DNA from: a virus
Taxonomy: Duplodnaviria > Caudoviricetes
Length of the DNA stretch: 49,631 nt
Reading direction: 5' to 3' (one strand)
IMG/VR virus record: IMGVR_UViG_3300023095_000002
Span: 1-49,631 of that record
Of the stretch, positions 6,285 to 31,555 are shown piece by piece. The stretch's first letter is position 1, and every line of letters starts with the position of its first letter. The position numbers and the translations under genes are program-made. Below the pieces are notes generated by a model that saw only the letters and a list, made by a program, of their open reading frames with translations, ran no database searches and was not told the origin of the DNA.

Positions 6285-6286
6285 CT

Positions 6287-8417: not shown

Positions 8418-8420
8418 ACT

Positions 8421-9530: not shown

Positions 9531-9551
9531 TCGAAACGAGGCACATCACCC

Positions 9552-13471: not shown

Positions 13472-13474
13472 GGG

Positions 13475-13675
13475 ATGGCAACGATCTATCACCTCAGCAC
13501 CGATGAGGCTCATGGCGAAGACGAAGTTGCCAGCGCTGCAGCCTATGCCGCCGCCAAAGCCAAGTACGATCGGGAGAACACCGACGGCCTGACATGGGAC
13601 GATCTGTCGAGACGCGACAAACTGCCGTTGTACCAGGCTGCATGGGCCGCCCTAAAACAGCAGGCACCGGAATGA
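13475..13675 (+). CDS. Hypothetical protein
   Basis: GGAG RBS, 66 aa. Confidence 0.65.
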   Translation: MATIYHLSTDEAHGEDEVASAAAYAAAKAKYDRENTDGLTWDDLSRRDKLPLYQAAWAALKQQAPE

Positions 13676-14112: not shown

Positions 14113-14351
14113 GACTGTGGGGCAAGAGCCCGTATGATTTGGAGCTTGAACGGCAAATGATGCTGGCTCGGCGCGAGTATGAACGCACCAATCCCACGCC
14201 GGCCGATCTGGGCGCCAAGTATGCGCCGCCGATCGCGCCAATGGTTGTCGTTCCTCGCTCCGAGCCAAAGCCAATGCATCCGCTGGCCATCGTCATCATC
14301 GCCGGGCTATCCTGCTTGGGCGTGATCTGGATCATCGAGCAGATCCTATGA
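14109..14351 (+). CDS. Small protein with C-terminal TM helix
   Basis: AAGGAG RBS; LAIVIIAGLSCLGVIWII. Confidence 0.7.
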   Translation: MRLWGKSPYDLELERQMMLARREYERTNPTPADLGAKYAPPIAPMVVVPRSEPKPMHPLAIVIIAGLSCLGVIWIIEQIL

Positions 14352-14650
14352 ACTACCGGCAGCGGTTCGCCCCAATCCGCAAGCCGCCATACTGGGGCAA
14401 CATCAAGCAAGAGGCAGACACCATGGCCGACCCACTATCCCTCACGATCGACGCATGCCGTGCGCTGGAATACGCCTGCAAGGAAGCCAACGTCGCCATG
14501 CCTGAGATACGGTTTCCGACAAGCCGTGATCGCTTTAACTTCGAAGCATGCTTGAAGGCGACGCAGACGGCCAAGATGGTCTTGACGATCGACAGTCAGG
14601 GAATGACGGATTTCGGAGTGATGGGAATTCGGATAACATCGGGCAGCTAG
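14348..14650 (+). CDS. Hypothetical protein (alternative start 14423)
   Basis: ATGA overlap; GAGG before 14423. Confidence 0.6.
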   Translation: MNYRQRFAPIRKPPYWGNIKQEADTMADPLSLTIDACRALEYACKEANVAMPEIRFPTSRDRFNFEACLKATQTAKMVLTIDSQGMTDFGVMGIRITSGS

Positions 14651-15422: not shown

Positions 15423-15809
15423 ATGCCCTTTGTTCTCCCGCCCAACATCGCCATCGGATCGCAAGAAGCGACCAATCTGCTGCTGCAATATCAGCTCGGC
15501 CAAGCCTCAATGGAGGGCGTGCCAGATGCGCCGCTCGTTCCGATGGGATATCAGCAGCTCACGAATGCCCAGCTAGCCACCGTGCAGGCGCTTACGGTCC
15601 CGGCTGGCGCAACCATAGCGCACATACAGAACAACGGCTCCCAGCGCTGCCGCTGGCGCGACGATGGGGTTGATCCGACCGCCACAACCGGGCGCGTGAT
15701 CTCTCCCGACGACACCGAGATTTATGACGCGGCTCTTGCGTCGGTGAAGATCATCCGCGGCGGCGACGGCGTGACGCTGGATATCTCCTATTACAAGCGG
15801 GGTGCATGA
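15423..15809 (+). CDS. Putative small virion beta-protein
   Basis: GYQQ...LTVP.GA..A.IQ......RWRDDG..PTA..G motif typical of phage structural proteins. Confidence 0.6.
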   Translation: MPFVLPPNIAIGSQEATNLLLQYQLGQASMEGVPDAPLVPMGYQQLTNAQLATVQALTVPAGATIAHIQNNGSQRCRWRDDGVDPTATTGRVISPDDTEIYDAALASVKIIRGGDGVTLDISYYKRGA

Positions 15810-16186
15810 TGCCGAAACTCTCGTTCTCCCGCCTGGGCAATCCAATGCGCGTGCCGATCTCGCCAACGTCGGGCCTCGACAAGTTTTCGACCTCCGGCAA
15901 GATCCCGATGTCGACGCAAAACCTGTCGTTCCAATTCGTGAACCCGCTCCCCTGCGATGTTCGGCTCGAAGGGTTTGCCGAAGAGGCTAGCTTTGCCGCA
16001 ATCGCGGCCGGTGTCGGTTGGCTTGTCATGGCCAGATCTGTCAGCGGCATCTATACCAGCAAGCGCCCCAAGTTCATTTCAGCCCAAGCGTTCGCATCGC
16101 CAGGCTTCCCGCTGCCGGTTGAGGGCGTCGATGGTTGGACCTGGACAAACTGCTTCCTTGAACTCGTATATGGCGAGGGCGATTGA
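15806..16186 (+). CDS. Hypothetical protein (probable virion/fibre accessory)
   Basis: 126 aa, coupled to neighbours. Confidence 0.65.
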   Translation: MMPKLSFSRLGNPMRVPISPTSGLDKFSTSGKIPMSTQNLSFQFVNPLPCDVRLEGFAEEASFAAIAAGVGWLVMARSVSGIYTSKRPKFISAQAFASPGFPLPVEGVDGWTWTNCFLELVYGEGD

Positions 16187-16710
16187 TGAGCGGCGGTAAA
16201 GGCTTCGGCTCATTTCTTTCGACTTGGGCAGCGTTGCGCGGAAAGCCAGCGACATTCCCGCCGGCTGCGCATAGCCATCCATGGGGCGAAGTAACAGGAA
16301 AGCCCAACACGTTCCCGCCTGCAGCTCATTCACACGCCTTCGCGGATATCACCGACAAGCCTTCGGCCTACCCGCCATCTGCGCACGGTCATACGATCGC
16401 CGATGTGCAGGGCTTGCAAACTGCGCTCGACGCCCAAGCGGCCAAGAACAATGTCTTGCTGGGCACGGTCAACATTGCCGAAACCGGGCTAACCCTGCTT
16501 GCGCTGTCGGTGCGGCGCGTGACGATCAATGTGACCGGCGCGGTCGTCGGCGGCAATTACAACGTCTATCCCGTCAACGCCGTACCTGCCGGCTTTGGTA
16601 TCGTCGACGCTGTTTGCACGACTGCCGGCCAGATCACGTTCGGCATGCTCGTTCCGCTGATCACCGGCAATTATTCGATCCCGGTGCGCGTCGTGCGTGT
16701 CGTCACCTGA
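16186..16710 (+). CDS. Short fibre protein with His-x-His phage-tail repeats
   Basis: KP..FPP.AHSH repeats x3 and HTIADVQGLQTALD (PTR-like), then small beta domain. Confidence 0.75.
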   Translation: MSGGKGFGSFLSTWAALRGKPATFPPAAHSHPWGEVTGKPNTFPPAAHSHAFADITDKPSAYPPSAHGHTIADVQGLQTALDAQAAKNNVLLGTVNIAETGLTLLALSVRRVTINVTGAVVGGNYNVYPVNAVPAGFGIVDAVCTTAGQITFGMLVPLITGNYSIPVRVVRVVT

Positions 16711-16771: not shown

Positions 16772-18937
16772 ATGGCATTCGATCCGAAAACCCCGCCGTC
16801 TCTCATTGCATCTGGGATTGGCGGGGCTCGCGGGCTTCGCGCGTTCCGATGGAAGTCGCTTGCGCCTGTGGCCGAGGTGATCGGTGCCAGTTACGTGCGG
16901 ACAGCTCGCAAACTCGGCATGCGTCCTGGCGACACGGTGCTTTACGTCGATGCGGACGACAACACCCATCATCTTCAAGTCGCAAGCATTGACCCGGACA
17001 CCGGCTGGGGAACGCTTGAGTTTCCTGATCTCGCGCCGGAAGCTGCTGGTAAGGTGCTGGACGCGACCAAGGCAACGCAGCCCGAGGCAGAAGCAGGCAC
17101 TCTAAACGACAAGAGCATGACGCCGCTGCGCACTCGTCAGGCTATTGACGCCGCCAAGCAGCGCGACGCGATCTATACTCCGCAAATGTTTGGAACCGTT
17201 GCACCTGGCGTTGATTGCGTGGCGTTGATCCGGCTCGCTCGTGATGCAGTAAAGCTAAAAGGCGGTGGAGTTATTTGGCTCCCTAAAATTGGCGGTGTTG
17301 GCTATGTCGTGTCGGGTCAAATTCTGGTCGACTTTAGTGACTGCTTAGTCTTGCTGGAGGATGACATAAAGCTATCCGGTACTGCTGCTGGCAGCGTTTT
17401 CCGGTTTGCTGGGTTGTCAAACACTCAGCGCATTTCAAATGTTTCTCTGGTCGGAACGAATAAGCCAAAAATCGACGGTAATGCGCTAGGCACTGCAGGA
17501 TATGTATATAGCTTGGTGGATAATTTTTACTGCTGCGTAATCTTTTTATATTGCGACAACTGGTTGATCCAGAACGTTTATGCTTACAACGGCCTGGTCA
17601 ACTGCATTCGCACGCACAGTTGCGGGAAGGGCCTTGATATAGACTGTGACACATCGCATGCGTTATACGACAACGGGCACTCGATAGACTTTGATCCGGC
17701 CGGCACTTCCGGCTGGGTTGAAAATAACCCGGCAACCTCGGCGTCTGTTGACATTGTTCGCCCCCGCGCTTGGAATTGCAGAGGGCTTGGTGTTGCTGCC
17801 TATGGCTCGACACGAGTCCTTGTTGATAACCCTAGAATTTGGAACTGCGGCAACGATGACGCAGGCGCTTACGCAGTCACCGGAGGTGGCATTTCAATTG
17901 AGGTGGATGTTTCTAACACTATTACCAGAGATAGCAGGGTCGTGGTTAATAACCCTCAGATTGATGACTGCTATGGTACTGGCATCGCTTGCTTTGTTCC
18001 CGGCGCTGTGGTGAATGGCGGCAAAATCGAACTAATGAAAAAGGCAGTTGTGAAGGCGGACCCTACAGGGAGAACTGGCTCTGCTTTTTGGGTGACAGGT
18101 AAAGGGTCAATTGACATTCGTGGAACTGTGCTTAGCAAATGCCAAGGTCCGTCTATTTATGGGTTGGCAGTTGGTGGTTTTTATCCATCCATCACTTTTG
18201 ACGGCACCATTGAGGATGGTTTGTCCAATGCTATATTAGGCCGGGGGGTGTCTTTTATCAAACTTTCACCAAAATCTATAATTCGTCGCTGCGGAAGTTC
18301 TACGTCTAATTACATATTTATTGATAACACTGGCGCGGGGTATAACCCTCTTGGTGGACAAGTAATAATTTCTGGTACTTTTAGCGAGAACCCGGCAAAC
18401 ATTTCAATTAAGAGTGTTGGCGATGTTAGAATTAGAAATGCCGATCTTGTAAACAACCGCCTAACTGCTGGTGTGGGTGACCAGATTGTTACTGACATTG
18501 CAAATTTCGCGGCTGTTCAGGGTGTAGTAAATCGAGATGACAATGCTCAGACACAACGCATTGTTTCAATAACCGCGTTAGTCTCAGTTGGTATTGCTGA
18601 CGGTGTAGCCGGAACATCTATATCGTCACCAGTTCGTAATCTTGCTCCAAGCCAGCCCTCCATGTTTCGGCAAGGGCAGGTTAGCGCGTCAAAGGCGTAT
18701 GATCCCGCTAGTATTCCTAATGGTGCTTCCGTCAGCACTAGCGTGGCGGGGTTAACTGGCGCTGAAATGGGGGATGAAGTAGCGGCAACGTTCTCGTTGA
18801 ACCTGACGGCAGGCGTTACGCTGAGTGCTTTTATGACCGCTCCCGCTACGGCGCTGTGCGTGTTTACGAACAACTCCGGGGTCGCTGTTGATCTTGGAAA
18901 TGGGACGCTAAAAGCTATAGCTCGAAAGTCGTACTAA
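16772..18937 (+). CDS. Spike protein 1: decoration-like N-domain plus right-handed beta-helix (putative depolymerase)
   Basis: AT..EAEAGT.NDKSMTPLRT.QAI neck, TPQMFG...GGGVIWLP beta-helix entry, Asn/Gly/Ile/Val-rich body, YDPASI..G C-domain. Confidence 0.85.
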   Translation: MAFDPKTPPSLIASGIGGARGLRAFRWKSLAPVAEVIGASYVRTARKLGMRPGDTVLYVDADDNTHHLQVASIDPDTGWGTLEFPDLAPEAAGKVLDATKATQPEAEAGTLNDKSMTPLRTRQAIDAAKQRDAIYTPQMFGTVAPGVDCVALIRLARDAVKLKGGGVIWLPKIGGVGYVVSGQILVDFSDCLVLLEDDIKLSGTAAGSVFRFAGLSNTQRISNVSLVGTNKPKIDGNALGTAGYVYSLVDNFYCCVIFLYCDNWLIQNVYAYNGLVNCIRTHSCGKGLDIDCDTSHALYDNGHSIDFDPAGTSGWVENNPATSASVDIVRPRAWNCRGLGVAAYGSTRVLVDNPRIWNCGNDDAGAYAVTGGGISIEVDVSNTITRDSRVVVNNPQIDDCYGTGIACFVPGAVVNGGKIELMKKAVVKADPTGRTGSAFWVTGKGSIDIRGTVLSKCQGPSIYGLAVGGFYPSITFDGTIEDGLSNAILGRGVSFIKLSPKSIIRRCGSSTSNYIFIDNTGAGYNPLGGQVIISGTFSENPANISIKSVGDVRIRNADLVNNRLTAGVGDQIVTDIANFAAVQGVVNRDDNAQTQRIVSITALVSVGIADGVAGTSISSPVRNLAPSQPSMFRQGQVSASKAYDPASIPNGASVSTSVAGLTGAEMGDEVAATFSLNLTAGVTLSAFMTAPATALCVFTNNSGVAVDLGNGTLKAIARKSY

Positions 18938-18993
18938 TCCTTTTTTGTAGAGCTTCGCGGTTAACAGCCCGCCGTCCCTCTGCCTAGCGTTCC

Positions 18994-19035
18994 AAGCCTC
19001 CCGCGTGTATCTATCGCGGGAGGCTTTCCCATTTT
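18994..19035 (+). terminator. Hairpin terminator between spike genes
   Basis: aagcctcccgcg...cgcgggaggctt followed by tcccatttt. Confidence 0.6.
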
Positions 19036-19049
19036 ATGGACCGCGCACC

Positions 19050-20912
19050 ATGGCATATGATCCAGATACCCCGCCATCCCTTCTCGTCCAAGGCGTGGGC
19101 GGCTCTGTCGGCCTGCGCTTCTATGCTCACACTTGGCTTGATCCAATCGCCGATGTCCTCGCGCCTGGCTACATCACCAACGCGCAAGAATTGGGCATGC
19201 GTCCCGGCGATGCTTTCCGGTACACCAACCTGTCACTCGGCCAGTGGGCAGATTACCATCTGATTGTTGCCGACGTGACGGTCGACGGCATTGCAACGCT
19301 CGGTTTCCCCGATGTTCCCGAAGAGGCAATCCCCTACGCCGATGACGTTGATCCATCTGACCCCGGCAATTACGTCATCATGTTCTCGGGTGGACGGCAG
19401 GTTCGCGTCGACTCTGTGAATTTCTTGGCCGGCGAAGGCACGGTCATGACCTCATCCGAGGCCCAGGCAAAGGGAGGCACGAACAATGATACGCGCATGT
19501 CGCCGCTGCGCACCAGGCAGGCGATCAATCTAAATTTTGCTGCTGACCGAGCTGCGATCAAATTGCTCGACCCTGCTGTCGTCACTAGCGTTTCGCTGGC
19601 CGAGCCCGGACGCGAAGGCGTGTTTGTCTGGCGTGCCGGGGACTATGCCGCCCGCGTGGCCGCTGATACTGCCGAGGGCATTTACATCAAGGCGACGGAC
19701 ATTGCCGCAACTGTCGGCGCATGGGTTCGAGACTACCGCGGCGCCGTTGATATCGCTTGGTTTGGCGTTGCGCCTGGCAATAACCCGGGGCCGATGCTGG
19801 CGACGCTTTTCGCCGCATATTCGCATGTCAGCATCAGCATTCCCGGCACCTATACCAACACCACGACCGCCATCACCCTGCCTCTGGGCAAGACACTCGT
19901 TCGCGGCGCGGGAGTGGACCTGAAGCACTCGGGCTCCGGTTCGTTCAACGCCAAAGGCACCGTCGTCACATTCGGCGAGAACCCATCCGGCATCAACGCA
20001 TGGGATAACAACGGCGGCGGGCGCGGCCTCGGGTTCAACTTTACCGGCGTGACTGCGGACATTGGCGGATATGGGCCGACGAAATACTCGATCCATCCCG
20101 TTCCGTCTGCCATCACCGGCACGGTTTCGGCACCGGCTGACAGCGCTTATTGGCATGCCCAGGCAATTGCAGGTTACGCCAAGAGCGCGACCACACTCAC
20201 GCCGCCCGTTGGCGTGTATGCGGAGTCAAATGCTGGCGTGGCTGGCATCAATGTTTTTGGCATGAACCCGCTCTGCAATGACAATGGATTTGCGGCCACG
20301 CTGATCGGCATTGAGGTGGACATAAACATCAAGAATACTGCCTCCAATGCCATTGGCCTTTATCTCATCGGCGACAGTCTGGGCGAGGGGACGGGCTTCA
20401 CCAAGGCGATCGAGATTGCGCCGATCGGCATCAGCGGGCCTTTCCGGTGGGACGTTGGGACTTATATCCAGAACGGGGCTGTCAAGATCGCCCTTTCGGC
20501 CGGCGCGCTTGGACTCGCTCCAAATACCGCCAGCTCGTCTATTGAGTGGCGATATGTGAATGGGTCCGGTGCTGACAGGCTGGGTGGGCAAGTCTTTGCC
20601 GACACCATGGGCAATACCCACCTGCAGGGAAACCGGGATGGCGGCGCGCTCTATCTGGAAAGCTGGGGGTCGGGCGTCTACAAAACTAACATCGGCATGG
20701 CGGCCGGCCTTACCTCGATCAACGGCGCCCCCTTCGAGCACCCCTTGAGCGTTCTTGGATCAACCAAGCTCAACGGCCAGGTCGGCTTTCAGGGTAACAA
20801 CCCAATGGCCAAGCCCACAGTGTCAGGCTCACAGGGCGGCAATGCAGCGCTGATTTCTCTGATTGCCGCCTTGACCAATTACGGACTGATTAACAACCTG
20901 ACCACCGCATAA
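19050..20912 (+). CDS. Spike/fibre protein 2 with decoration-like N-domain
   Basis: N-terminus paralogous to 16772; MSPLRTRQAI neck; GAWVR...WFG; C-terminal GFQG..P...PTVSGSQGGNAAL.SL..AL. Confidence 0.85.
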   Translation: MAYDPDTPPSLLVQGVGGSVGLRFYAHTWLDPIADVLAPGYITNAQELGMRPGDAFRYTNLSLGQWADYHLIVADVTVDGIATLGFPDVPEEAIPYADDVDPSDPGNYVIMFSGGRQVRVDSVNFLAGEGTVMTSSEAQAKGGTNNDTRMSPLRTRQAINLNFAADRAAIKLLDPAVVTSVSLAEPGREGVFVWRAGDYAARVAADTAEGIYIKATDIAATVGAWVRDYRGAVDIAWFGVAPGNNPGPMLATLFAAYSHVSISIPGTYTNTTTAITLPLGKTLVRGAGVDLKHSGSGSFNAKGTVVTFGENPSGINAWDNNGGGRGLGFNFTGVTADIGGYGPTKYSIHPVPSAITGTVSAPADSAYWHAQAIAGYAKSATTLTPPVGVYAESNAGVAGINVFGMNPLCNDNGFAATLIGIEVDINIKNTASNAIGLYLIGDSLGEGTGFTKAIEIAPIGISGPFRWDVGTYIQNGAVKIALSAGALGLAPNTASSSIEWRYVNGSGADRLGGQVFADTMGNTHLQGNRDGGALYLESWGSGVYKTNIGMAAGLTSINGAPFEHPLSVLGSTKLNGQVGFQGNNPMAKPTVSGSQGGNAALISLIAALTNYGLINNLTTA

Positions 20913-20921
20913 GAGGACAAT

Positions 20922-21098
20922 ATGCAGATCACAACGCGCCCCGAAGACACGTATTCTATCCTGGCCAGCCAGCGCAACGCAGCGCTGGATCAGGTGGCGA
21001 CAATGTACGCCGAGATGGTCGCGCTCAAACGCGCCTTGGCCGAAGCGCTGGAATTGAAAGCCGACGACGCCAAGGCCGGAGAAGGCGAAACGCAGTGA
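20922..21098 (+). CDS. Small coiled-coil protein (possible fibre chaperone), 58 aa
   Basis: GAGGA RBS; LASQRNAALDQVA; GTGA overlap with terL. Confidence 0.7.
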   Translation: MQITTRPEDTYSILASQRNAALDQVATMYAEMVALKRALAEALELKADDAKAGEGETQ

Positions 21099-22519
21099 CG
21101 TTTCATTTCACCAAAAAGCAAATGGTCGCCACCGACATCATCGGTGGTGATGCTACTCATATCCTGCTGTTTGGCGGGTCGCGCTCGGGCAAGAGCTTCT
21201 TTGCCGTTCGCGCCCTATTCGCTCGAGCTATCTACTGCCCCAACTCCCGGCACCTGATCGCGCGCTTCCGCCTATCGCACGTCAAGGCTTCGGTCATTGC
21301 CGATACCATCCCCAAAGTCATTGAACTTTGCTTCCCTGAATTGAAGGGATCGATCCAGCACCTCAAGTCCGAGAACCACTACAAGCTGCCGAACGGCTCT
21401 GAGGTTTGGTATGCCGGCCTCGACGACAAGGACCGTACCGAGAAGATCCTTGGTATGGAGTTCGCGACGCTTGATCTGGAAGAATGCTCGCAAATCCCAT
21501 GGGCATCGCGCGAAACGCTGATCACCCGCCTTGCTCAAAAGACAAGCCGGCCAAACCCGGAAGATATGGACGGCAAGAAGGGCCTACCGCGTCTGCCCGG
21601 GCTGCGGCTCAAGGCTTATTACACGCAAAACCCGCCTAACAAGAACCACTGGACCTATAAGCTTTTCATCGAGCGCAAGTCGCCAGACACCAGCCGGCCC
21701 GTTCCTGATCCGGCAAATTACAATTTCCTCAAGATGAACCCCGACGATAATGTCGAGAACATTGCCGATGGCTATGTCGAGACGGTTCTCGGCGGGCTAT
21801 CCGAGCGCCAGCAAAGGCGATTTCGCTATGGTGAGTTCGGCGATTTGGGCGAAGCGGCGCTCTGGTCATACGAGCTGATTGATCAGCAGCGCATCGGCGA
21901 GACGGAAGAGGTCGACATGAGCGACTTCATCCGTGTTGTCGTGGCCGTCGATCCTTCGGGCGCCAGTAGTGTTGATGACGCGCATCGTGACGAGATCGGT
22001 ATCGTGGCGGCCGGACTGCGCGCCAACGGCAAGGTGCTGGTGTTGGAAGATGCCACTATGAAGGGCTCGCCTGGCGAGTGGGGCAAGACTGTCGTTCAGG
22101 TGTTCGAGCGCTGGGGCGCTGATCGCGTGGTCGGCGAAACCAACTTCGGCGGCGACATGGTTCGGTTCGTCGTCCAGTCGGCGGCGGCGGAAGCCCAGAT
22201 CACCGTTCCTTACCGGGCTGTGTTTTCAAGCCGCGGCAAATACCTTCGAGCCGAACCGATCGCCGCGCTCTATGAAGCGGCCAAGGTCGAGCATATGCCT
22301 GGCCTTAAAGCGCTCGAAGACGAAATGGTTCTGATGACGACTTCTGGATATGCCGGCGAGCGGTCCCCCAACCGCGTTGACGCTGCCGTCTTCGCGATAA
22401 CCGACCTGTTCCCAACGGTGATCAAAAAGGCTAATGCTGAGACATCGGCGCAAAGGCACACCACGCCACAAGTCAACCTCGGCCATTCTCAAGCGAAACG
22501 GGCCGGCAAAAGGAGATAG
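21095..22519 (+). CDS. terL: Terminase large subunit
   Basis: Walker A GGSRSGKS, LEECSQI Walker B, NPP, nuclease VAVDPS...DEIGI...SPNRVDA. Confidence 0.95.
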   Translation: MTFHFTKKQMVATDIIGGDATHILLFGGSRSGKSFFAVRALFARAIYCPNSRHLIARFRLSHVKASVIADTIPKVIELCFPELKGSIQHLKSENHYKLPNGSEVWYAGLDDKDRTEKILGMEFATLDLEECSQIPWASRETLITRLAQKTSRPNPEDMDGKKGLPRLPGLRLKAYYTQNPPNKNHWTYKLFIERKSPDTSRPVPDPANYNFLKMNPDDNVENIADGYVETVLGGLSERQQRRFRYGEFGDLGEAALWSYELIDQQRIGETEEVDMSDFIRVVVAVDPSGASSVDDAHRDEIGIVAAGLRANGKVLVLEDATMKGSPGEWGKTVVQVFERWGADRVVGETNFGGDMVRFVVQSAAAEAQITVPYRAVFSSRGKYLRAEPIAALYEAAKVEHMPGLKALEDEMVLMTTSGYAGERSPNRVDAAVFAITDLFPTVIKKANAETSAQRHTTPQVNLGHSQAKRAGKRR

Positions 22520-22522
22520 GCG

Positions 22523-22810
22523 ATGGGCGGCGTGAAGAACAACAAGAGCGGCGGCGGGGGCATTCTTGGCTCAAAGAGCGCTGGCGCTGTCAGCGCAGCC
22601 ATGGCGGCGGCCAGCCCAACGCCAGTGACCGGCGAATATGCCGCTGACAAGCCCGCGATCATGCCGGTTTACAACTCACCAGCCCAGATCGAGTCTGCCC
22701 GCAAGCGTCGCGAGGCGGTCATCACGCGGTCGGGTCGATCATCGACCAACCTCGTCGGCAATCCCGGCACGCAGGCGTACCAGTCCAGTTTTCTCGGAAG
22801 CACCGCATAA
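22523..22810 (+). CDS. Small virion-associated protein preceding portal
   Basis: MGG...RSGRSSTNL pattern and position typical of BPP-1-like podoviruses. Confidence 0.65.
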   Translation: MGGVKNNKSGGGGILGSKSAGAVSAAMAAASPTPVTGEYAADKPAIMPVYNSPAQIESARKRREAVITRSGRSSTNLVGNPGTQAYQSSFLGSTA

Positions 22811-24465
22811 TGTCCGACTCCCGCGCCGATGAACTGACTGCAATCTCGGGCTCGCTGTTCTCCGACAAGCGCCATTGGGATTCCATGTCGCAAGAGATTG
22901 CCGAGAACTTTTACCCCATCCGCGCGGACTTCACCTCCGAGCAGCACCTTGGCAGCGACTTCGGCGCGCATCTGTCGGACTCGTTCCCGGTCAACTCCCG
23001 CGAAACGCTGGGCAACGCCATCGACTCCATGCTGCGCCAGGGTGAATGGTTCGAAGTCGGGACCGGCGACGAAGAGCGGGACAAGCGGCCAGCCAATGCC
23101 GTAGCGCTCAAGACTGCAACGCAGGCCCTTCGCAATATCGTCCGCGATCCCCGCACTGGCTTTGATGTCGCAACCAAAGAGGCGGATCACGATTGGGTCG
23201 CGTTCGGTAATCCCGTCCTGTCATGGGAAGAGGCGCCGTCGCGCAACCATCTGGTAACGCGCTGCTGGCACCCCAAGCTCTGCGCATGGATGGTCGACGA
23301 TAGCGGCAAGGTCAACGCGCTGCATCGCAAGATGAACATGCAGGCCCGCAACATCAAACAGAAGTTCAAAACGGGAAAATGGACCGGCAAGCTGCACGAG
23401 GATATCGAGCGCTGCGCCACCAAGGAGCCGACCAAGACTTTCCCCATCGTGCATATCCTGATGCCGATCGAGGAACTGTACGGCGACGACCACAAGATGC
23501 TGCGCAAGCACAAGCATGGTTTTATCTCGGTCTATATCGACCCGACCCATCGCGAAATTCTGAACGAGCTGGGCAGCAAGACTTTCAACTATGTCGTGCC
23601 GCGGTATCGCACGCTGTCAAACCTGCCTTGGGGTTTCTCGCCGGCCGCCATCAACTCGCTGCCCGATGCCCGCATGCTTCAAGCCATGGCTATTGTCATT
23701 CTCGAGCAGGGCGAAAAGGCTGTCGATCCCCCGATGGTTGGCGCGTCCGACGTGTTCGTGCGTGATATCAACCTCTATGCAGGCGGCTTCACGTCGGTTG
23801 ATCTCGATGAAAACCGTGACATTCGCAACGCCATGCAGGTAATCGAAACCGGCCAAGGCATTCAAACCGGGCTGCAGCTCAAGCAGGACGTGCGTTCGCT
23901 GCTCGCCGAAGCATGGTTGCTGAACAAGCTCTATCTGCCCAACGTGCGCGAAATGCGCGAGCTGGAAGTCATGGTCCGCACCGAAGAGTTTCGCCGGGCC
24001 GCTTTGCCGTTCTTCAACCCCATCGATAGCCAGTACCATTCGCCGCTGCTGGGCGTGGGTTTCGAAATGGCCGTCAACCTGGGCTATATCGATCCGCGCA
24101 TTTTTCCCGAAGAGCTGCAAGAGCAGGACGTTGCTTTCACCTTCACCAGCCCGCTCAAGGATGCCGAAGGCCAAAAGGTCGTGGCATCGTTCGAGAAGTC
24201 GGTCCAGCTCGTCGCTGCCGGCGCGCAGGGCGACGCTTCCATTGCCAAGCTGTTCGACATGCGTCGTGCCACGATCGACGCTGTGCGCGGTGCTGGCGCT
24301 GAACCCGAATGGTTCAAGACCGATGACGAGCAGGAGGAAGAAAAGGTGAAGGGCGATCAGGTCAATGATCTGCTGCAGACGGCCAATGTGCTGCAGACTG
24401 GCGCCGCTGCCGCCGCTGACGTGAGCAATGCCACGATGGCCGCTCAAGCTGCGGGGCTCGCATAA
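22810..24465 (+). CDS. Portal (head-tail connector)
   Basis: 551 aa; W..IAENFYP, PRY......WGFSPA...LPDARMLQ, EKAVDPP, F.SPL..A. Confidence 0.92.
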   Translation: MSDSRADELTAISGSLFSDKRHWDSMSQEIAENFYPIRADFTSEQHLGSDFGAHLSDSFPVNSRETLGNAIDSMLRQGEWFEVGTGDEERDKRPANAVALKTATQALRNIVRDPRTGFDVATKEADHDWVAFGNPVLSWEEAPSRNHLVTRCWHPKLCAWMVDDSGKVNALHRKMNMQARNIKQKFKTGKWTGKLHEDIERCATKEPTKTFPIVHILMPIEELYGDDHKMLRKHKHGFISVYIDPTHREILNELGSKTFNYVVPRYRTLSNLPWGFSPAAINSLPDARMLQAMAIVILEQGEKAVDPPMVGASDVFVRDINLYAGGFTSVDLDENRDIRNAMQVIETGQGIQTGLQLKQDVRSLLAEAWLLNKLYLPNVREMRELEVMVRTEEFRRAALPFFNPIDSQYHSPLLGVGFEMAVNLGYIDPRIFPEELQEQDVAFTFTSPLKDAEGQKVVASFEKSVQLVAAGAQGDASIAKLFDMRRATIDAVRGAGAEPEWFKTDDEQEEEKVKGDQVNDLLQTANVLQTGAAAAADVSNATMAAQAAGLA

Positions 24466-24851
24466 TGCCCGGGCCTTACACCGACACCGAGCGGGATGTT
24501 CTTATCGATGCGATCCTTGCTCGGTTTGACCTGATCGAGCCCGACCTGTCGCAAGCCCTGCTGGATATCGGCGCGCTCCAGACGGACAACACGACCAATA
24601 TCTCCAACATTGAAATGCTGCAGACTGGTGCCGTCGATCTTTCCTCTCGGATCGATGCCGTTGAAGGCGTGACGATCCCCGCCGTTGATACGCTGCAAGA
24701 CGACATGGTGAATGTCATTCGCTCTGCGCGGCGGCGCCAAGAGAACGACCCGGCGCAACTGGGCAAGTCGCAAATCGTTCAGCGCGTGGCGATCGAACAG
24801 GTGCGTCGTCCCGATGGCAGGATGGCCCAGCGCGTGGTTAATCCCCGGTAA
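24465..24851 (+). CDS. Hypothetical coiled-coil protein
   Basis: 128 aa with heptad pattern, TAATG overlap with portal. Confidence 0.7.
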   Translation: MPGPYTDTERDVLIDAILARFDLIEPDLSQALLDIGALQTDNTTNISNIEMLQTGAVDLSSRIDAVEGVTIPAVDTLQDDMVNVIRSARRRQENDPAQLGKSQIVQRVAIEQVRRPDGRMAQRVVNPR

Positions 24852-24901
24852 CTTCCATATCCCGCCTGTTTCCGCTATGCGTTGAGACGGGAGGCCCCAC
24901 A

Positions 24902-25198
24902 TTGAAGATCGACCCCGACCTTAAAATCTCCGAAGCCGATGTGTTCGCCGTGCGCTCTTGCATGACGGGCACCGCATCCGCCGATCAGCAGCAGCGCGCA
25001 ATGCAATGGATTGCTGGCTCGGCCTGCGCCTTGTTCGAACCCGAATACGAGCCTGGCGAGCGTCCCCTTGCCAGCGCTCATCGAAGCGGTCGCCGCTATG
25101 TCGGCCTGCTGCTGTCCATCATGAAAGAACCCGCGATCTTGGAGCATGCCCAAAAGGCTGACAAAGACGCGCTCACCAAGCGAAGAGGCACAAAATGA
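24902..25198 (+). CDS. Bbp19-like small head-module protein
   Basis: A..GTA..DQQ.RA..WI......SA..SGRRYVGL; GGAGG RBS; position between portal and scaffold. Confidence 0.65.
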   Translation: MKIDPDLKISEADVFAVRSCMTGTASADQQQRAMQWIAGSACALFEPEYEPGERPLASAHRSGRRYVGLLLSIMKEPAILEHAQKADKDALTKRRGTK

Positions 25199-26166
25199 AA
25201 TTCAATATCTCACAGCCGCTATGGATGCCGGCAGATGAAGGCGCTGGCGGCGGCGAGGGTGGCGCGGAGAAGGTCGAAGGCGCTGCCGACGCTGGTGCCG
25301 ATAAGGGCGGGGCTTCATTCCTCGCCAATGCCGATGACCCTGCTGCTGTCGATAAGGCCATCGCGGCGCCGGCTGACTGGCCCGAGGATTGGCGCGACAA
25401 GCTGGCCGGCGAAGACAAGGACTTCCGCAAGCGCCTTGATCGCGTTGCCTCAATGGCTGACTTCTCCAAGTCCTACCGCGAAGCCGAAAAGAAAATCACG
25501 GGCGGCAAGAAGGGCGTCGTTGCGCTTGATGAGCCAATGCCCGACCCCGAGAAAGACCCGGAAGGCTTGAAGGCTTGGCGCGAAGCCCGCGGCGTTCCTG
25601 CTACGCCCGAGGATTACGCCATCCCCGATACCGTCAAGGATTTGGTGACGGATGCCGACAAGCCGCTGATCGCCGCATTTACCTCAAGCATGCACCAGAA
25701 GGGCATATCGGCCGCGGCTGTTGGTCCGGTCATGGAATGGTATTTCGAGCAGCAGCAAGCCGGGCTCGACGAAACGATTGCCAAGGACAAGGAACTGAAC
25801 GAGTCCTTGCAAGAAGAGCTACGCGGTGAATGGGGCAGCGAGTTCCGAGCCAACTCAACATTGGCGAAGCGCATGGGCGAGAAGCTGTTCGGCGATCTGC
25901 CATGGACGGAAGCCCGTATGCCAGATGGTCGACGCCTCGGCGATGTTCCAGCCATGCTTCGCGCCCTGGCTTCCGCTGCGACTGCAGAATTCGGCGACGT
26001 GTCGTTTGCCGGGGAACAAGCCGCGAGCAAGACGGTCGCGCGTGAAGCTGAAATCCGCGAAATCATGCGGACGGATTTTGATCGATACGACAACGACCCG
26101 GCAATGAAGGCTGAGTTTCAGCAGATCACCGAGGCCAAACAGAAGCGCGACGCAGTTCGCCGCTAA
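25195..26166 (+). CDS. Capsid scaffolding protein
   Basis: Acidic, DWPEDWR, GVP.TPEDY, L..EWG..F..N; directly upstream of capsid gene. Confidence 0.85.
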   Translation: MKFNISQPLWMPADEGAGGGEGGAEKVEGAADAGADKGGASFLANADDPAAVDKAIAAPADWPEDWRDKLAGEDKDFRKRLDRVASMADFSKSYREAEKKITGGKKGVVALDEPMPDPEKDPEGLKAWREARGVPATPEDYAIPDTVKDLVTDADKPLIAAFTSSMHQKGISAAAVGPVMEWYFEQQQAGLDETIAKDKELNESLQEELRGEWGSEFRANSTLAKRMGEKLFGDLPWTEARMPDGRRLGDVPAMLRALASAATAEFGDVSFAGEQAASKTVAREAEIREIMRTDFDRYDNDPAMKAEFQQITEAKQKRDAVRR

Positions 26167-26329
26167 GCCGTATTGCCAAAACAATGAGCATCGCTTAATG
26201 GTGATGCTCATTAACGCCCCACGTCAGCGCCGAGGCGCTTGCCAGACAACCCGCAATGCGGCGCTGGCTAAACCCGGACAACCTGCACAGCACGGCTAAT
26301 CCCCCTGTTCATGCCAAGGAGTCCGGTCA

Positions 26330-27169
26330 ATGACCGTCCAAGCTCAAGTAGCAACCTACCGCACCGAATACGTTCAGGCTTTCGAAGCCCGCAAGTCGGA
26401 TCTCGCCGCTCTCGCCACGACCAAGGAAGTCATGTCCTCGGGCCTGACCGCAACGTTCCTCGTCGCTGGCTCCGGTGGTGCATCCGCTGTTACCCGCGGC
26501 CAGAACGGTCTGATCCCATACGGCGCCAACGCCAACAACCAGATCACCGCGACGCTGGTTGAAAAGCATGCCCCGTTCGAAATGACCGGCTTCGATATCT
26601 TTGCCTCGCAGGGTGATCAGAAAAAGATCATGCGCGACAACTCGATCGCCGTGATCAACCGTGAAATCGACGACACCATCCTTGCCGAGCTGGCCAACGC
26701 TACGCAGGACGTCGGCACCGGCACGATGACCCTGGCCACCATTGCGACGGCTGTTGCCGTGCTTGGCCAGAACGACGTGCCGATCGAAGAAGAAAACAAC
26801 ATGTTCGGCATCATGTCGCCGGGCGCCTGGGCCTATCTGATCCAGCTCCCGACGTTCTCTTCGTCCGATTACGTCGACATGAAGCCGCTGTCTGGTCCTG
26901 CCCGCAAGATGGTTCGCTGGGCCGGCGTGAACTGGATCCGCTCTTCGCGTGTTCAGGGCCTCGGCACTGCAAACGAATTTCTCTACATCTGGCACCGCAA
27001 CGCTCTCGGCTATGCAGTGAACCTGGGCGAAGAGAAGATCACCCTTGGCTACGAGGAAAAGCAGCAGGTTTCGTGGACCAACGGCACGATCTACCATGCG
27101 GCCAAGATCCTGCAGAACTCGGGCATCATCAAGATCACCCACAACTCCAGCGCGATCGTTGCCACCTGA
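26330..27169 (+). CDS. Major capsid protein
   Basis: 279 aa, AAGGAG RBS, strong codon bias, INREID..I...L, W.G..WI, WH..A.GYA. Confidence 0.88.
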   Translation: MTVQAQVATYRTEYVQAFEARKSDLAALATTKEVMSSGLTATFLVAGSGGASAVTRGQNGLIPYGANANNQITATLVEKHAPFEMTGFDIFASQGDQKKIMRDNSIAVINREIDDTILAELANATQDVGTGTMTLATIATAVAVLGQNDVPIEEENNMFGIMSPGAWAYLIQLPTFSSSDYVDMKPLSGPARKMVRWAGVNWIRSSRVQGLGTANEFLYIWHRNALGYAVNLGEEKITLGYEEKQQVSWTNGTIYHAAKILQNSGIIKITHNSSAIVAT

Positions 27170-27184
27170 TCGGTTCTGATCATC

Positions 27185-27210
27185 GCCTCGGCCTTCGGGC
27201 CGGGGTTTTC
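27185..27210 (+). terminator. UUCG-capped hairpin with short U-tract between capsid and decoration genes
   Basis: cctcggcc TTCG ggccgggg tttt. Confidence 0.65.
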
Positions 27211-27243
27211 AACTGAACTGGCTACCGAAAAGGAAACATGGCC

Positions 27244-27519
27244 ATGGCTTATAGCGTTCAAAATCCCCCAGCTCTCGTTTATCAGGCCGTTGGCGGCATG
27301 GTGCGTCACTGGGTTTACAAGTCTCCCGATGCTGCTGCTGTCGTTGCCGCTGCCGGTTATTTTACCAACGGTCAGAAGCTCGGCCTTAAGATTGGTGATC
27401 TGATTGAAGTCATCAACACCACTGGCAATATCTCCACGCTGCATCAGGTTTCGGCTGTTGGCCTGACCACGACCGACATCAACGATGCGACCGTGATCAA
27501 CCAGACCGACACCAACTAA
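27244..27519 (+). CDS. Putative capsid decoration/cement protein (91 aa)
   Basis: Immediately after MCP; W.YKS.D....V..AGYF....KLGL..GD.I; function inferred from synteny and size. Confidence 0.65.
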   Translation: MAYSVQNPPALVYQAVGGMVRHWVYKSPDAAAVVAAAGYFTNGQKLGLKIGDLIEVINTTGNISTLHQVSAVGLTTTDINDATVINQTDTN

Positions 27520-27576: not shown

Positions 27577-27610
27577 GGCCAGGGTTCCGAAAGGGCTCTG
27601 GCCTATTTTC
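27577..27610 (+). terminator. Rho-independent terminator with GAAA loop
   Basis: ggccagggttcc GAAA gggctctggcc tattttc. Confidence 0.7.
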
Positions 27611-27627
27611 ATTAAGAGGTCGCTGCA

Positions 27628-28173
27628 ATGTCCAACACCCCCAAGCTACTCTCGGCCCGCTACATGGGCTCTGCTGAAACCGAGCGCTCGTATTTCCATG
27701 TTGAGGTCGATGCCGACGTTTCGCTGCAAGATATCCTGACCCCTGCATTTTGGGGCCACCACGCTTCTCGCGTGAAGCGCGGCACGCTGATCGATGTGAT
27801 CCGCCGCGATCTGACCCTTGATGTGCAGCTCCGCGTTCTCGAAACCGGCAAGGGCTTCGTCAAGGTTCGCCCCATCCGCGTTTATGAAGATGAGGCCGCT
27901 GCTGCCCAGATCGCCGAAACTGCGGCGCGCATTGAGCAGATCAATGCCGATGACACCGTAGAAAACGAAATCTTGCCTGCTGATTTCTACAAGATCAGCC
28001 ACGTCGCGCGCGGCGCCAAGGCTGGGTTCGTCGTGATCTACAAGCCGACCGACACTCGCATTGCCGAGGCTGTTGCGCTGCGCCCCGACGCCGTGCGCCT
28101 GGCGCTGGCCCATGCCAAGCAGCTCGGCATTGATCTCACTCCTGTCCCGAAAGCCGAGGAAATGGTCGAATGA
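27628..28173 (+). CDS. Hypothetical protein between head and tail modules
   Basis: 181 aa, DILTPAFWGHHA, GAGG RBS. Confidence 0.8.
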   Translation: MSNTPKLLSARYMGSAETERSYFHVEVDADVSLQDILTPAFWGHHASRVKRGTLIDVIRRDLTLDVQLRVLETGKGFVKVRPIRVYEDEAAAAQIAETAARIEQINADDTVENEILPADFYKISHVARGAKAGFVVIYKPTDTRIAEAVALRPDAVRLALAHAKQLGIDLTPVPKAEEMVE

Positions 28174-28796
28174 CGACAAAGCTCAAGCTCTACAATCTCG
28201 CGCTGGGGACGTACATCGGCACCCAGCGCCTCGCCAACCTGACCGAGAACGTAGCATCGCGCTACGCTCTCGACGACGTATTCGACAGCAGCGTTCAATA
28301 CATGCTCGAGCAAGGGCTGTGGAAATTCGCGCTCAAGACGATCAACCTCACTTCGCTTCGCGTTGAAGCCGCTGCCCATCGCTCTTGGGTCTATCCCCTG
28401 CCCGCCGACTTTGTACGCCTGGCCCGCATATCGAACGACAAACGGCTCGACGTGAATGGCCAGCTCGAAGATTTTCTTGAAGAAAACGGGTTTGTTTACA
28501 CCGACAGCGATCGGCTTTGGATTCAGCACGTCTCGAATGACGAAACGCATGGCCTGAACTTCGACCTGTACCCAGCCAATTACGAGCAGGCCGTCGCGTC
28601 CTGGCTGGCCTATCAGTCGCTCTTGCCGGTCAACAAGGATCGAGGCGACCGCGCCGATCTCCTGAAACTGCATGAACGAACCTTGAGCAATTCGCGCCGG
28701 CTCGATGCTGTCGACGAAGCGGTCAAGGCCAAGCCCAGTGGCCGGTGGCCCGCGGCGCGCGGTCGCGTAAGCGGCTATCTCGGAACGACCCGCTAA
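28170..28796 (+). CDS. Tail tubular protein A / adaptor (T7 gp11-like)
   Basis: KL.LYN.AL..., L..G.WKFA.K, Y.LP.DF.RL, F..A....LA. Confidence 0.82.
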   Translation: MTTKLKLYNLALGTYIGTQRLANLTENVASRYALDDVFDSSVQYMLEQGLWKFALKTINLTSLRVEAAAHRSWVYPLPADFVRLARISNDKRLDVNGQLEDFLEENGFVYTDSDRLWIQHVSNDETHGLNFDLYPANYEQAVASWLAYQSLLPVNKDRGDRADLLKLHERTLSNSRRLDAVDEAVKAKPSGRWPAARGRVSGYLGTTR

Positions 28797-28813
28797 CCCA
28801 AGGAGCGCACGCT

Positions 28814-31555
28814 TTGCCCGAAATCCTTTATCACTCAATGGCTGTGGGCGTGGTGGATGCTGACAAGCTCCATCGTGTGGATCTTGAGCGGATGCGCTTG
28901 GCGGCCGAAGAGCAAACCAATCTGGTCTGCGATGTCGTCGGCAAAGCGTTTCTCCGGCCCGGGCTGCAGCATATCGGGATGGCGCATAGCGCGGGCTATC
29001 AGCGATTGATCCCGTTCTATGCTGGCGAGCTGCAAGGGTATGGGCTTTGCCTCACGGCCAACGCGCTCAAGATACTGGATGGCGACGCGTTCGTTTCCCG
29101 GCCCGCTGTCACGACAGCCGTGGTGAATGGGGATTTTACCGGTGCGGGCGGGTGGACGCTCGGGACTGCGGCGGGAACGTCGGTGAGCTACGTGTTCAGC
29201 CAGTTCTTGCGCATGGCTGCGTTCGGGCGGGGGGCGCGAGCCACGGCTCGGCAAGAGGTTTCCGTCACTGGGGCCAATATCGGCAAAGAGCATGGCCTGC
29301 GTATCGATATGAATATCGGCACGGTTCGCATCCGTGTCGGTTCGACTTTGGGCGGGCAGGAATACGTTCGCGAAACGCCACTGCGCCGAGGCTTCCATTC
29401 GCTGGCTTTTATCCCAACGGGCAATTTCTTCATTGAATTTTCAATGACCAGTCCTCGCCCGATCTACATCAACGCTGTTACGGTCGAGCCTGCCGGCGAC
29501 GTTGTGCTACCCACGATATGGGCCGAAGACGATCTGCAGTATATCCGTCATGACCAATCGCTCGATGTGATGTTCCTCGCCTGCGAAGGGCGAATGACCC
29601 AGCGCATTGAAACCCGCGGCGACAATTCCTTTTCGGTCTGCGACTTCATCACCGATGACGGCCCGTTTGCTCTTGGCCAAGTGACCGGCGTGAAGCTAAA
29701 GCCCAACGTAACTGAGGGGGAAGGAAATCTGGATTCCAATATCCCGTTCTTCACCCCTGACCATGTTGGCACGCTGTTCCGCGTTTTCCACGAAGGCCAG
29801 AAGATCGACACCTATGTTTCGGCCGATGGCGAGTTCTCTCCGACGATCATGGTGACGGGCATCAATGAGCCCGATTACAACGAACGCGGATGGAGCTACA
29901 CGATCAGCGGGACGTGGGCCGGCACGCTCAAAGTGCAGCGCTCGTTCGATGGCGATGATGTCGAATTCCACAATTTCCGCAAGGCGTCTGGAACGGCTGA
30001 TCAGAACATCACCGCCAACGTCGCCAACGTTTCGAACGACGACAACGAAGACAACGCGATCGCCTATTATCGCATCGGGTTTGAGCCTGGCACCTATGTC
30101 AGCGGCACTGCCCATATCGAGATCTTCTACAATGGCGGCGGCGGTTTTGGTGTTTGCCATGTGGGTACTTACGTTTCGCCAACGCAGGTCAATATCGACG
30201 TCATCAAGCCATTCAAGGGCACGACGTTCTCTGACAACTGGCGTGAAGGCGCGTGGTCCGAGGCACGCGGCTGGCCGACAAGCCTTGCCTTCCATGAGGG
30301 ACGGCTGTGCTTGGCTGGCTATGACGCCTTTTGGGGTTCGGTGTCTGACGCATACGAATCCTTTGACGAGGATTATGTCGGCGATGCTGGCCCGCTCCTG
30401 CGCTCGATCGCCTTGGGTGGGCGCAACACGGCGCGCTGGCTGGTGTCGATGGGCAATCTCATGCTCGGCACAAGCAGCCTAATCGCTTCGGTGCGCGGAT
30501 CTTCCCTTGACGAAATCATGACCCCGGAAAACTTCGGCATCCGCAAGCAGGATAAGGTCGGCGCTGCTCGCGTCAGCCCGGCGCTGCTGTCAGATGATCG
30601 GGCGCTGTTCGTCGAGTCCGAGGGACGCGCGTTGTTCGAGCTGACCTATGCCTCGGACAAGGGGAAATACAGGGCAACCGAGTTCTCGCGCCTCACGACC
30701 AATCTGTTCAAAACCGGCGTCACCGATATCGCCGTGCAGAACCGGCCAGATCAACGCATCTGGATCACAACCGGGGGCAGCGATACCATCTGCATCGTGT
30801 TCAATCCCGGCCAGGAAGTGGTGGCCCATGTCGTCGTTGCGCTCGACAGCCCGCAAGACCTGATCGAAAGCGTCATGACCCTGCCGGGCACGGCTGGCCA
30901 GGACCGGGTTTTGATGTCGGTGCGCCGCGTGGTCAACGGCGTCACGACGCGCCGGATTGAGCGCATGGCGCTTGATCTTGAGACAGTGCCGGCCGCCATC
31001 ACCAAATGCCTTGATGCTCATGTCGTGTTCGGCGCTGGCAATGCGACAGTTTCGCTGCCCCATTTGATCGGGCGCACGGTCTGGGCGTGGGTCGATGGTC
31101 ATTATGTGGAAGACGAAAGCGGGGCGCCTGTGCCGTTTGTCGTGTCCGGGGCTGGGACTATAACCCTGCCGTCCGCTCCCGCCGTGGGCGGCTGCGCTGG
31201 CCTGCCCTATCGTGGCCGCTACAAATCGGCGAAGCTTGAATACGGCGACGGCGGCAACACATCGGTCATGCGCAACAAGCAACTGACCAGCATTGGCTTG
31301 CTGCTTGCGGATTATTGCCGATCAGGGGTCAGGTTTGGCAGCGAGTTTGATAATCCCAATCATCCGCTCTTCAACCTGCCGTCGACTTACAACAGTGTGC
31401 CGATACCCTCCGACATCATTCTTGGGCCTGGGCCAACTGAACTGACCAATCCCGTTGACGCGCCTGTCACGCTCGACGCTCGCATGTGCATCGAAGTCAC
31501 GAAGCCCGCATCCATCTTGGCGCTGGTCATGGGCTTCGGCGGGCATGGCGGATAA
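28814..31555 (+). CDS. Tail tubular protein B / nozzle (T7 gp12-like)
   Basis: TTG start after AAGGAG; LRPGL, QS.DVMF.AC, W.EGAWS..RGWP...FHEGRL, L.HL.G.TV. Confidence 0.88.
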   Translation: MPEILYHSMAVGVVDADKLHRVDLERMRLAAEEQTNLVCDVVGKAFLRPGLQHIGMAHSAGYQRLIPFYAGELQGYGLCLTANALKILDGDAFVSRPAVTTAVVNGDFTGAGGWTLGTAAGTSVSYVFSQFLRMAAFGRGARATARQEVSVTGANIGKEHGLRIDMNIGTVRIRVGSTLGGQEYVRETPLRRGFHSLAFIPTGNFFIEFSMTSPRPIYINAVTVEPAGDVVLPTIWAEDDLQYIRHDQSLDVMFLACEGRMTQRIETRGDNSFSVCDFITDDGPFALGQVTGVKLKPNVTEGEGNLDSNIPFFTPDHVGTLFRVFHEGQKIDTYVSADGEFSPTIMVTGINEPDYNERGWSYTISGTWAGTLKVQRSFDGDDVEFHNFRKASGTADQNITANVANVSNDDNEDNAIAYYRIGFEPGTYVSGTAHIEIFYNGGGGFGVCHVGTYVSPTQVNIDVIKPFKGTTFSDNWREGAWSEARGWPTSLAFHEGRLCLAGYDAFWGSVSDAYESFDEDYVGDAGPLLRSIALGGRNTARWLVSMGNLMLGTSSLIASVRGSSLDEIMTPENFGIRKQDKVGAARVSPALLSDDRALFVESEGRALFELTYASDKGKYRATEFSRLTTNLFKTGVTDIAVQNRPDQRIWITTGGSDTICIVFNPGQEVVAHVVVALDSPQDLIESVMTLPGTAGQDRVLMSVRRVVNGVTTRRIERMALDLETVPAAITKCLDAHVVFGAGNATVSLPHLIGRTVWAWVDGHYVEDESGAPVPFVVSGAGTITLPSAPAVGGCAGLPYRGRYKSAKLEYGDGGNTSVMRNKQLTSIGLLLADYCRSGVRFGSEFDNPNHPLFNLPSTYNSVPIPSDIILGPGPTELTNPVDAPVTLDARMCIEVTKPASILALVMGFGGHGG

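Follow-up and report, generated by a model that had tools for sequence, protein, structure and literature searches.

Introduction

The tail anchors of podophages, such as those of T7 gp17 (PF03906) and P22 gp9 (PF09008), combine a conserved N-terminal module with a neck and exchangeable bodies. In the anchor-branch systems of Klebsiella KP32-type phages, two spikes have related N-termini. Host-range prediction and engineering for podophages presuppose that receptor-binding proteins are tail-borne; the capsid would be an unusual place for such proteins. Here we analyse a phage genome in which each of two large spikes begins with a paralog of a putative capsid decoration protein. The genome is IMG/VR virus record IMGVR_UViG_3300023095_000002 (49,631 bp, estimated 96% complete), which was analysed in full and is called the window below (G000 where records are compared). 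Its two spikes resemble the known podophage tail-anchor proteins in their conserved N-terminal module, their neck and their differing bodies. They differ in that the N-terminal module is a paralog of a gene in the capsid module, and in that a Pfam scan detected no anchor family.

Head fibres are known from phage phi29, in which gp8.5 is a head fibre on a decoration-type base at the quasi-threefold sites of the capsid. The phi29-type fibres share with the arrangement considered here the concept of a trimeric base on quasi-threefold sites that holds a fibre outward. However, so far as is known they belong to other folds and families, they are thin fibres or knobs and not beta-helix spikes, and the phages that bear them retain tail-borne receptor-binding proteins. 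The cement protein of phage Phi-Xacm4-11 was considered as a protein of the same kind and rejected, being dimeric and 148 amino acids (aa) long.

A closer counterpart is chain H of PDB entry 9EG4 (ALK43931.1), the head decoration protein of Legionella phage LME-1. According to the structural report (PMC12407071), the protein is encoded between the coat gene and that of the adaptor. Its trimeric base bridges two hexons and a penton, and its distal part extends outward and was left out of the atomic model. The authors describe the protein as unlike any earlier decoration protein (PMC12407071). Thus a base-plus-cargo protein of this fold has already been seen on a capsid. In searches of titles and abstracts for capsid-borne depolymerases and for an anchor common to decoration proteins and spikes, we found no paper on a decoration-protein paralog as the N-terminus of a spike.

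Results and discussion

Three homologous copies of one domain

A sequence-only reading of the window had located two spike genes and a 91-aa gene after the capsid gene, and had aligned their N-termini by hand. The open reading frame (ORF) positions agree with those found here. The relevant features are listed below.

16772-18937, + strand: spike 1, 721 aa, with a decoration-like N-domain, a neck and a right-handed beta-helix body
16772-17032, + strand: spike 1 N-domain, aa 1-87, sp1-type anchor (phrog_18004 match at aa 1-64; profile match at aa 1-87; sp1 subclade)
17096-17146, + strand: spike 1 neck motif GTLNDKSMTPLRTRQAI, aa 109-125
19050-20912, + strand: spike 2, 620 aa, with a decoration-like N-domain, an inserted hairpin region, a neck and a body of unclear family
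19050-19331, + strand: spike 2 N-domain, aa 1-94, sp2-type anchor (similar to the 91-aa protein, BLASTP E 5e-12; predicted structure)
19476-19526, + strand: spike 2 neck motif GTNNDTRMSPLRTRQAI, aa 143-159
27244-27519, + strand: free 91-aa decoration-like protein (DEC; phrog_18004 E 7e-20)

The three copies are homologous. In BLASTP comparisons, the 91-aa protein matches the N-terminus of spike 2 (26/62 residues identical, E 5e-12) and that of spike 1 (22/72 identical, E 2e-9), as the hand alignments had suggested. The spikes match each other across the N-domain and the neck, ...GT.N...M.PLRTRQAI (63/174 identical, E 1e-23). Beyond the neck their bodies are unrelated by BLASTP, which was also part of the original proposal. 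All three proteins match phrog_18004 (E 7.3e-20 for the 91-aa protein, 4.1e-5 for spike 1 and 5.7e-5 for spike 2), a family to which PHROG attaches no function or location. The free protein covers the whole of the 92-position profile, whereas the spike forms match the first 54-62 positions only. A search of the full 49.6-kb record found exactly three copies.

The start M-[ASTPV]-[YF] is common to 145 of 149 listed relatives, and the gene starts of the sequence-only reading are thereby supported. An ATG at 27238 would add 2 aa to the 91-aa protein. Spike 2 is counted as 620 aa from its ATG; a GTG upstream, at 19005, would add 15 aa. An N-terminal arm, M-A-Y-x-x-x-x-P-P-x-L, is common to the free and spike forms.

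Both spike bodies had been proposed to be of the polysaccharide-binding or -degrading type. For spike 1 the predicted fold agrees with this. Its body has a PF13229 Beta_helix match (E 1.7e-4; 21.7 bits, under the 25.9-bit cut-off), and its Atlas model is similar to GH28/pectate-lyase-like clusters over aa 130-627 (template modelling (TM) score 0.55-0.65). For spike 2 there are weak tailspike-like leads only. In the Pfam scan (E up to 0.01), Beta_helix was the only family for spike 1 and no family was found for spike 2, a setting at which a weak match could escape. A loose form of the neck pattern occurs in 6 of 42 longer family members scanned, both window spikes included.

A predicted decoration-protein fold

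AlphaFold2 (AF2) models were compared with solved structures. For the 91-aa protein (mean predicted local distance difference test score (pLDDT) 77), the top match was 9EG4_H, with a Foldseek E of 1.1e-3, a probability of 1.00 and a TM score of 0.65-0.67. VIA-align superposed 77 of 89 residues with a root-mean-square deviation (rmsd) of 2.3 and a Z of 9.6; the next chain reached Z 5.8. Spike 2 was modelled over aa 1-175 from a 46-row alignment (pLDDT 82). Residues 1-85 of this model have the strand and helix order of the 91-aa model, followed by an added hairpin and helices. Again, 9EG4_H was the match (Foldseek E 8.6e-3), with 78 of 89 residues superposed for aa 1-87 (Z 9.9, rmsd 2.1; next chain, Z 6.0). 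Identity to 9EG4_H in the structural alignments is 14-22%. Hence, the Foldseek check that the sequence-only reading had proposed gave a shared predicted fold, and a sole strong match, for the spike 2 N-domain and the 91-aa protein.

The genomic setting of the 91-aa gene was compared with that of its relatives in IMG/VR, where 150 stretches carry relatives and the best 80 loci of the 150 were analysed. In 80/80 loci, no other recognised gene comes between the coat homolog and the family member downstream of it, and the adaptor and nozzle genes follow where the contig continues. In the window, hairpin and U-run elements lie after both the coat gene and the 91-aa gene, as listed here.

26330-27169, + strand: major capsid protein, 279 aa (PF19821 E 2.7e-19; phrog_3437 E 1.6e-46)
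27185-27210, + strand: GC-rich hairpin with UUUU behind it, downstream of the capsid gene (fold energy -25.6 kcal/mol, z -3.1; absent from the terminator-scan list)
27577-27613, + strand: terminator-like hairpin and U-run after the DEC gene (terminator scan; fold energy -19.7 kcal/mol, z -3.25)

These elements fit expression of the 91-aa gene together with the coat protein. The idea that the 91-aa product decorates the capsid thus gained ground on three counts: the predicted LME-1 base fold (Z 9.6), its place after the coat gene in 80/80 loci, and the hairpin-plus-U elements. By predicted fold and context, the free 91-aa protein is very probably a capsid decoration protein of the LME-1 type.

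The likeness to LME-1 has several sides. The 91-aa protein and the spike 2 N-domain share the predicted fold of its decoration protein (rmsd 2.1-2.3). The free gene also has the same position, downstream of the coat gene and ahead of the adaptor gene in a T7-like module; the two spike genes lie instead upstream of the terminase gene. The LME-1 protein too is a base with an outward distal part. Number and cargo differ. There is a single such gene in LME-1, and its T7-like tail fibre is separate; the window has three copies and no T7-like fibre gene. Two of the three copies are on spike bodies (proteins of 620-721 aa) encoded elsewhere in the genome.

A widespread family with fused cargo

A profile of six N-domains was run with HMMER against 1.84 billion representative sequences. 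The family so defined has 853 proteins (cluster representatives) within an E limit of 1e-3, of which 241 also pass 1e-10. Among the best 150 matches, 108 have lengths of 79-131 aa, 6 of 186-251 aa and 36 of 348-992 aa; the match begins within the first four residues in 148 of these 150. Pect-lyase_RHGA_epim, Beta_helix or phage tail tip domains were recognised by Pfam in 4 of 30 long members scanned; the others had no Pfam match. Since many unrelated bodies are found on the same anchor clade, the notion of exchangeable bodies is indirectly supported.

These data bear on the alternative that the shared N-terminus serves no purpose in mounting. In that case it would be a recombination leftover, or an aid to folding or secretion, and the spikes would be soluble enzymes. 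We regard this as very improbable. The domain is conserved at the N-terminus of the 36 long proteins, on many different bodies; its spike form is more conserved than its free form; and the spike genes are in the structural operon, adjoining the terminase gene, in five loci.

The survey of relatives for the same fusion, which had been suggested with the first proposal, yielded five further loci with such spikes (L084, L085, L086, L089 and L090). In L084, part of the 54.9-kb, 100%-complete record G005, two spikes are encoded upstream of the terminase gene, and a free 91-aa copy is encoded after the coat gene. A single spike adjoining the terminase gene is found in L085, together with a free copy. 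In L086, a free 89-aa copy is followed directly by a 1132-aa N-terminal fusion. L089 and L090 carry homologs of the small window gene g175 (described below) upstream of their decoration-type spikes.

Cargo has also been joined to the domain at the decoration locus itself. Family forms of 184-187 aa are found there in L039, L058 and L071. In L024, the free decoration-like gene and the adaptor gene are separated by an ORF of 1320 aa (5266-9228, + strand). Its C-terminal 86 residues are closely like the free copy of its own genome (phrog_18004 match at aa 1234-1319) and follow a PKD-like sequence. The cargo is thus N-terminal and the anchor C-terminal, the reverse of the window spikes. This fused copy should bind wherever the free protein does. 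L059 has two tandem 82-aa decoration-like copies after its coat gene (7008-7517, + strand).

Other searches returned little. With tblastn, the 91-aa protein had no match in 50,697 phage records and the coat protein had one weak match, so no cultured, annotated relative was found. A search of PDB sequences gave nothing for the family profiles or the two spikes, nor for the 888-aa, 746-aa, 181-aa and coat proteins of the window. A word-index protein search returned 3 near-identical small proteins only, and a scan of GTDB genomes with alignment A4 found no relative. Scans of viral sequences with the spike 1 N-domain, P0036 and P0017 added one weak locus only, L103 (26% identity).

Possible docking of the spikes on the capsid

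Tentatively, and at chances we put just short of even, we favour docking on the capsid through a decoration-type socket over docking on the tail. The spike N-domains would form trimeric sockets on quasi-threefold capsid sites, beside the free decoration protein. The latter would be made in bulk with the coat protein, and its trimers would fill most sites of the expanded head. The two spikes, expressed from a separate cassette before the terminase gene, would occupy a minority of sites; alternatively, they may take a special class of site, for example that nearest the portal vertex. From the head, the spikes could bind surface polysaccharide, which spike 1 would cut, and the particle would be held until the short tail reaches the envelope.

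Besides the homology, predicted fold and gene position set out above, three observations pull toward capsid display. One is the LME-1 decoration protein with its distal part. Another is the set of independent cargo fusions: L024, L086 and the 184-187-aa forms. The third is that the window, L084, L085 and L086, the four spike-bearing loci in which the capsid region can be seen, have all retained a free copy.

The principal alternative is that an old duplicate of the decoration protein has been co-opted as a tail anchor. It would now dock the spikes on the adaptor-nozzle complex of the T7-like tail, with the two subtypes at two kinds of position, or with spike 1 riding on spike 2. The free protein alone would decorate the head. 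This is a real possibility, if on balance a doubtful one. The structural genes concerned are in T7 order, as judged from Pfam and PHROG matches.

21095-22519: large terminase (Pfam/PHROG scans)
22810-24465: portal (PF12236)
25195-26166: probable scaffold (Pfam/PHROG scans)
27628-28173, + strand: 181-aa protein between DEC and the adaptor (phrog_26742)
28170-28796, + strand: tail adaptor, T7 gp11-like "tail tubular A" (phrog_394 E 3e-26)
28745-31555, + strand: nozzle, T7 gp12-like "tail tubular B" (phrog_376 E 7e-91; homologs annotated tail tubular B)

The points that weigh against a place on the capsid, most of which favour the tail, are set out in the next four paragraphs. The first concerns the history of the domain. 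A FastTree tree was built from 159 N-terminal segments; P0001-P0006 (duplicates or near-duplicates of window sequences) and P0128 and P0150 (domain not N-terminal) were left out. Of 42 tips from proteins longer than 260 aa (5 of the 42 being duplicates of database entries), 40 are in one clade of 43 tips (support 0.85). The L086 fusion and P0153 fall outside this main spike clade. The clade has two subclades, sp1 and sp2, and the window and L084 each hold one spike of each type. L085 and L089 show the sp2 type only, adjoining the terminase gene. Some residues are conserved in the spike clade specifically, and fewer positions are invariant among the free proteins than within this clade.

Rates of change tell the same story. 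Between the window and L084/L085, identity is 57-66% for the spike N-domains, 40-45% for the free proteins and 70-73% for the coat. The spike N-domains are thus conserved like the portal (59-61% in the same comparison, 59-64% between genomes) and the nozzle (61% between the window and G005, where the adaptor has 53%), and unlike the free protein. This pattern fits a changed partner, as a move to the tail would entail. On these comparisons, what the spikes carry as their presumed virion anchor is an old, specialised paralog of the decoration protein and not a recent copy of the cognate free protein. Two distinct docking places would also account more readily than a single common socket for the co-retention of sp1 and sp2 in the window and L084.

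Next are the fibres of the relatives. Those with the free protein only have a fibre or spike of 390-960 aa that starts with another module, A5 (alignment members L093:1155-1574, L099:947-1336 and L096:3214-3603). A5 was found in 13/13 free-protein-only records (G001-G004, G006-G010 and G013-G016), each with a single family copy. In the three that are fully annotated (G002, G006 and G007), the A5 fibre gene follows the internal virion proteins. No A5 module was found in G000 (96% complete) or G005 (100%), both of which bear decoration-type spikes. Hence, decoration-type spikes and the A5-type fibre are mutually exclusive in this sample, and in G000 and G005 the spikes look like replacements of the main fibre. 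These two genomes are related (coat 72% identical), so this pattern may reflect one evolutionary event. The window has no other large receptor-binding candidate, and it would be unusual for a phage to have no receptor-binding protein on its tail. In their bodies, the spikes are ordinary tailspikes, and a T7 tail-fibre N-domain is present in members of the Atlas structure cluster nearest to spike 1.

The remaining points are structural. If every site were occupied by trimers of 620-721-aa proteins, these would outweigh the shell; docking on the capsid would therefore require low, regulated occupancy. The predicted fold is a small beta-barrel with PUA/ASCH-like neighbours. Moreover, the family sequence profiles found no 9EG4 chain among all PDB sequences at E up to 10, so the link to LME-1 rests on predicted fold and gene position.

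There are nonetheless observations that sit badly with a tail anchor. The only structure solved for a protein of this fold comes from a capsid (PMC12407071). Pfam and structure searches found no likeness to solved fibre anchors: Carin-1 8ck1_B and Kp7 7y22_Y reach Z 3.0-3.1 only, and no domain of the T7 gp17 (PF03906) or P22 (PF09008) type scored above Z 3.1. Neither the adaptor (n=75), the nozzle (n=61) nor the portal (n=59) has an insertion of at least 5 residues specific to spike-bearing genomes; the same is true of the coat alignment (n=87). A5, for its part, is not established as a tail anchor. Among PDB sequences it matches best 9nx3_A (E 3e-10), a chain named "Capsid decoration protein", and we found no paper citing 9NX3 in the literature. 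The second-best match is to an internal segment of the tail fibre of LME-1 (9efk orf22, aa 306-386; E 8e-5).

Small fibre- or lectin-like genes of the spike cassettes could also supply tail-borne binders. In G005 (L102) these encode a 560-aa SGNH-esterase-like protein (12872-14554, - strand) and a 327-aa Laminin_G_3 (lectin-like) protein (9439-10422, - strand). They flank the two decoration-type spikes, and neither has a decoration-like or A5 module. In the window the candidate is g175, directly upstream of spike 1 and likewise free of both modules.

16183-16710, + strand: small tail-fibre-like gene g175 (PF12789 PTR below cut-off; many PHROG tail-fibre families)

The g175 product has three "..PP(A/S)AH(S/G)H" repeats and a C-terminal domain, with almost no N-terminal region.

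To return to the capsid: in its strongest form, docking there would mean that this lineage gave up the fibre of its relatives and bears its only enzyme-type receptor-binding spikes on the shell, in decoration-protein sockets. The two socket subtypes would serve two classes of quasi-equivalent site, for example a ring next to the portal vertex and the rest, and the head would be the primary organ of adsorption and polysaccharide degradation. We think this stronger form somewhat unlikely.

A further alternative is indirect mounting, in which the spike N-domains contact neither coat nor tail directly. They would join the free 91-aa protein, in mixed trimers or stacked on its trimers, or bind a different small protein of the virion, for instance the 181-aa product. 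Retention of the free copy in the four spike-bearing loci named above is in keeping with such a partnership, and the shared N-terminal arm could be an oligomerisation element. However, beta-helix spikes are normally homotrimers, and mixed trimers would leave the spike bodies unpaired. It would also be odd for obligate partners to evolve at such different rates, the free protein being much the faster. The 181-aa gene, present in many relatives and absent from others, also occurs in relatives without such spikes. We judge indirect mounting improbable.

Both of the more probable outcomes matter beyond this genome. A widespread capsid-module family supplies the N-terminal module of dozens of spike and fibre bodies, and its only solved structural relative dates from 2025. 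Spikes on the capsid would be a natural display of large enzymes on phage heads, with a different adsorption geometry. Spikes on the tail would be a clear case of exaptation of a decoration protein into a tail anchor, and would give annotation pipelines a new class of receptor-binding-protein anchor. In both cases, phrog_18004 and its fused forms gain a testable role.

Other genes of the window and its relatives

The spike genes are set apart from the tail genes, being directly upstream of the terminase gene. Within the region 15806-16710 (+ strand), a 126-aa gene of no known family precedes g175, and its TGATG end overlaps the g175 ATG.

After the nozzle gene, a run of internal virion proteins reaches 44211. 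Two genes in the position of T7 gp17 were considered as fibre genes and rejected. The 888-aa product matches phrog_684, with homologs annotated as internal virion or structural proteins, and the 746-aa product has a cell-wall hydrolase domain at its start. For the remaining larger ORFs of the window, matches were of the replication type or absent, and the Pfam and PHROG scans gave no further large receptor-binding candidate among them.

Three separate cell-wall-degrading domains are encoded in the window, at 32354-35032, 41971-44211 and 44268-45248 (+ strand). Peptidase_M15 and a SleB-like Hydrolase_2 are within two presumed ejection proteins, and the third domain is a GH19-type endolysin. Between the first two, 35032-39255 (+ strand) encodes a 1407-aa "polyvalent" internal virion protein with a DdrB-like ParB domain (E 5e-32). 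It also has a weak match, below cut-off, to the ART-PolyVal ADP-ribosyltransferase.

The window further encodes a Ros/MucR-family regulator (3624-4058, - strand; E 4e-38) and a tRNA-Ala(GGC) (2544-2635, - strand). No integrase was recognised in the window. The family of the regulator is a hint that the host is an alphaproteobacterium and the lifestyle temperate. In the relative G006, an O-antigen acetylase gene (AT3 plus SGNH; L099:3490-5418, - strand) adjoins the tailspike gene and is likely a lysogenic-conversion gene.

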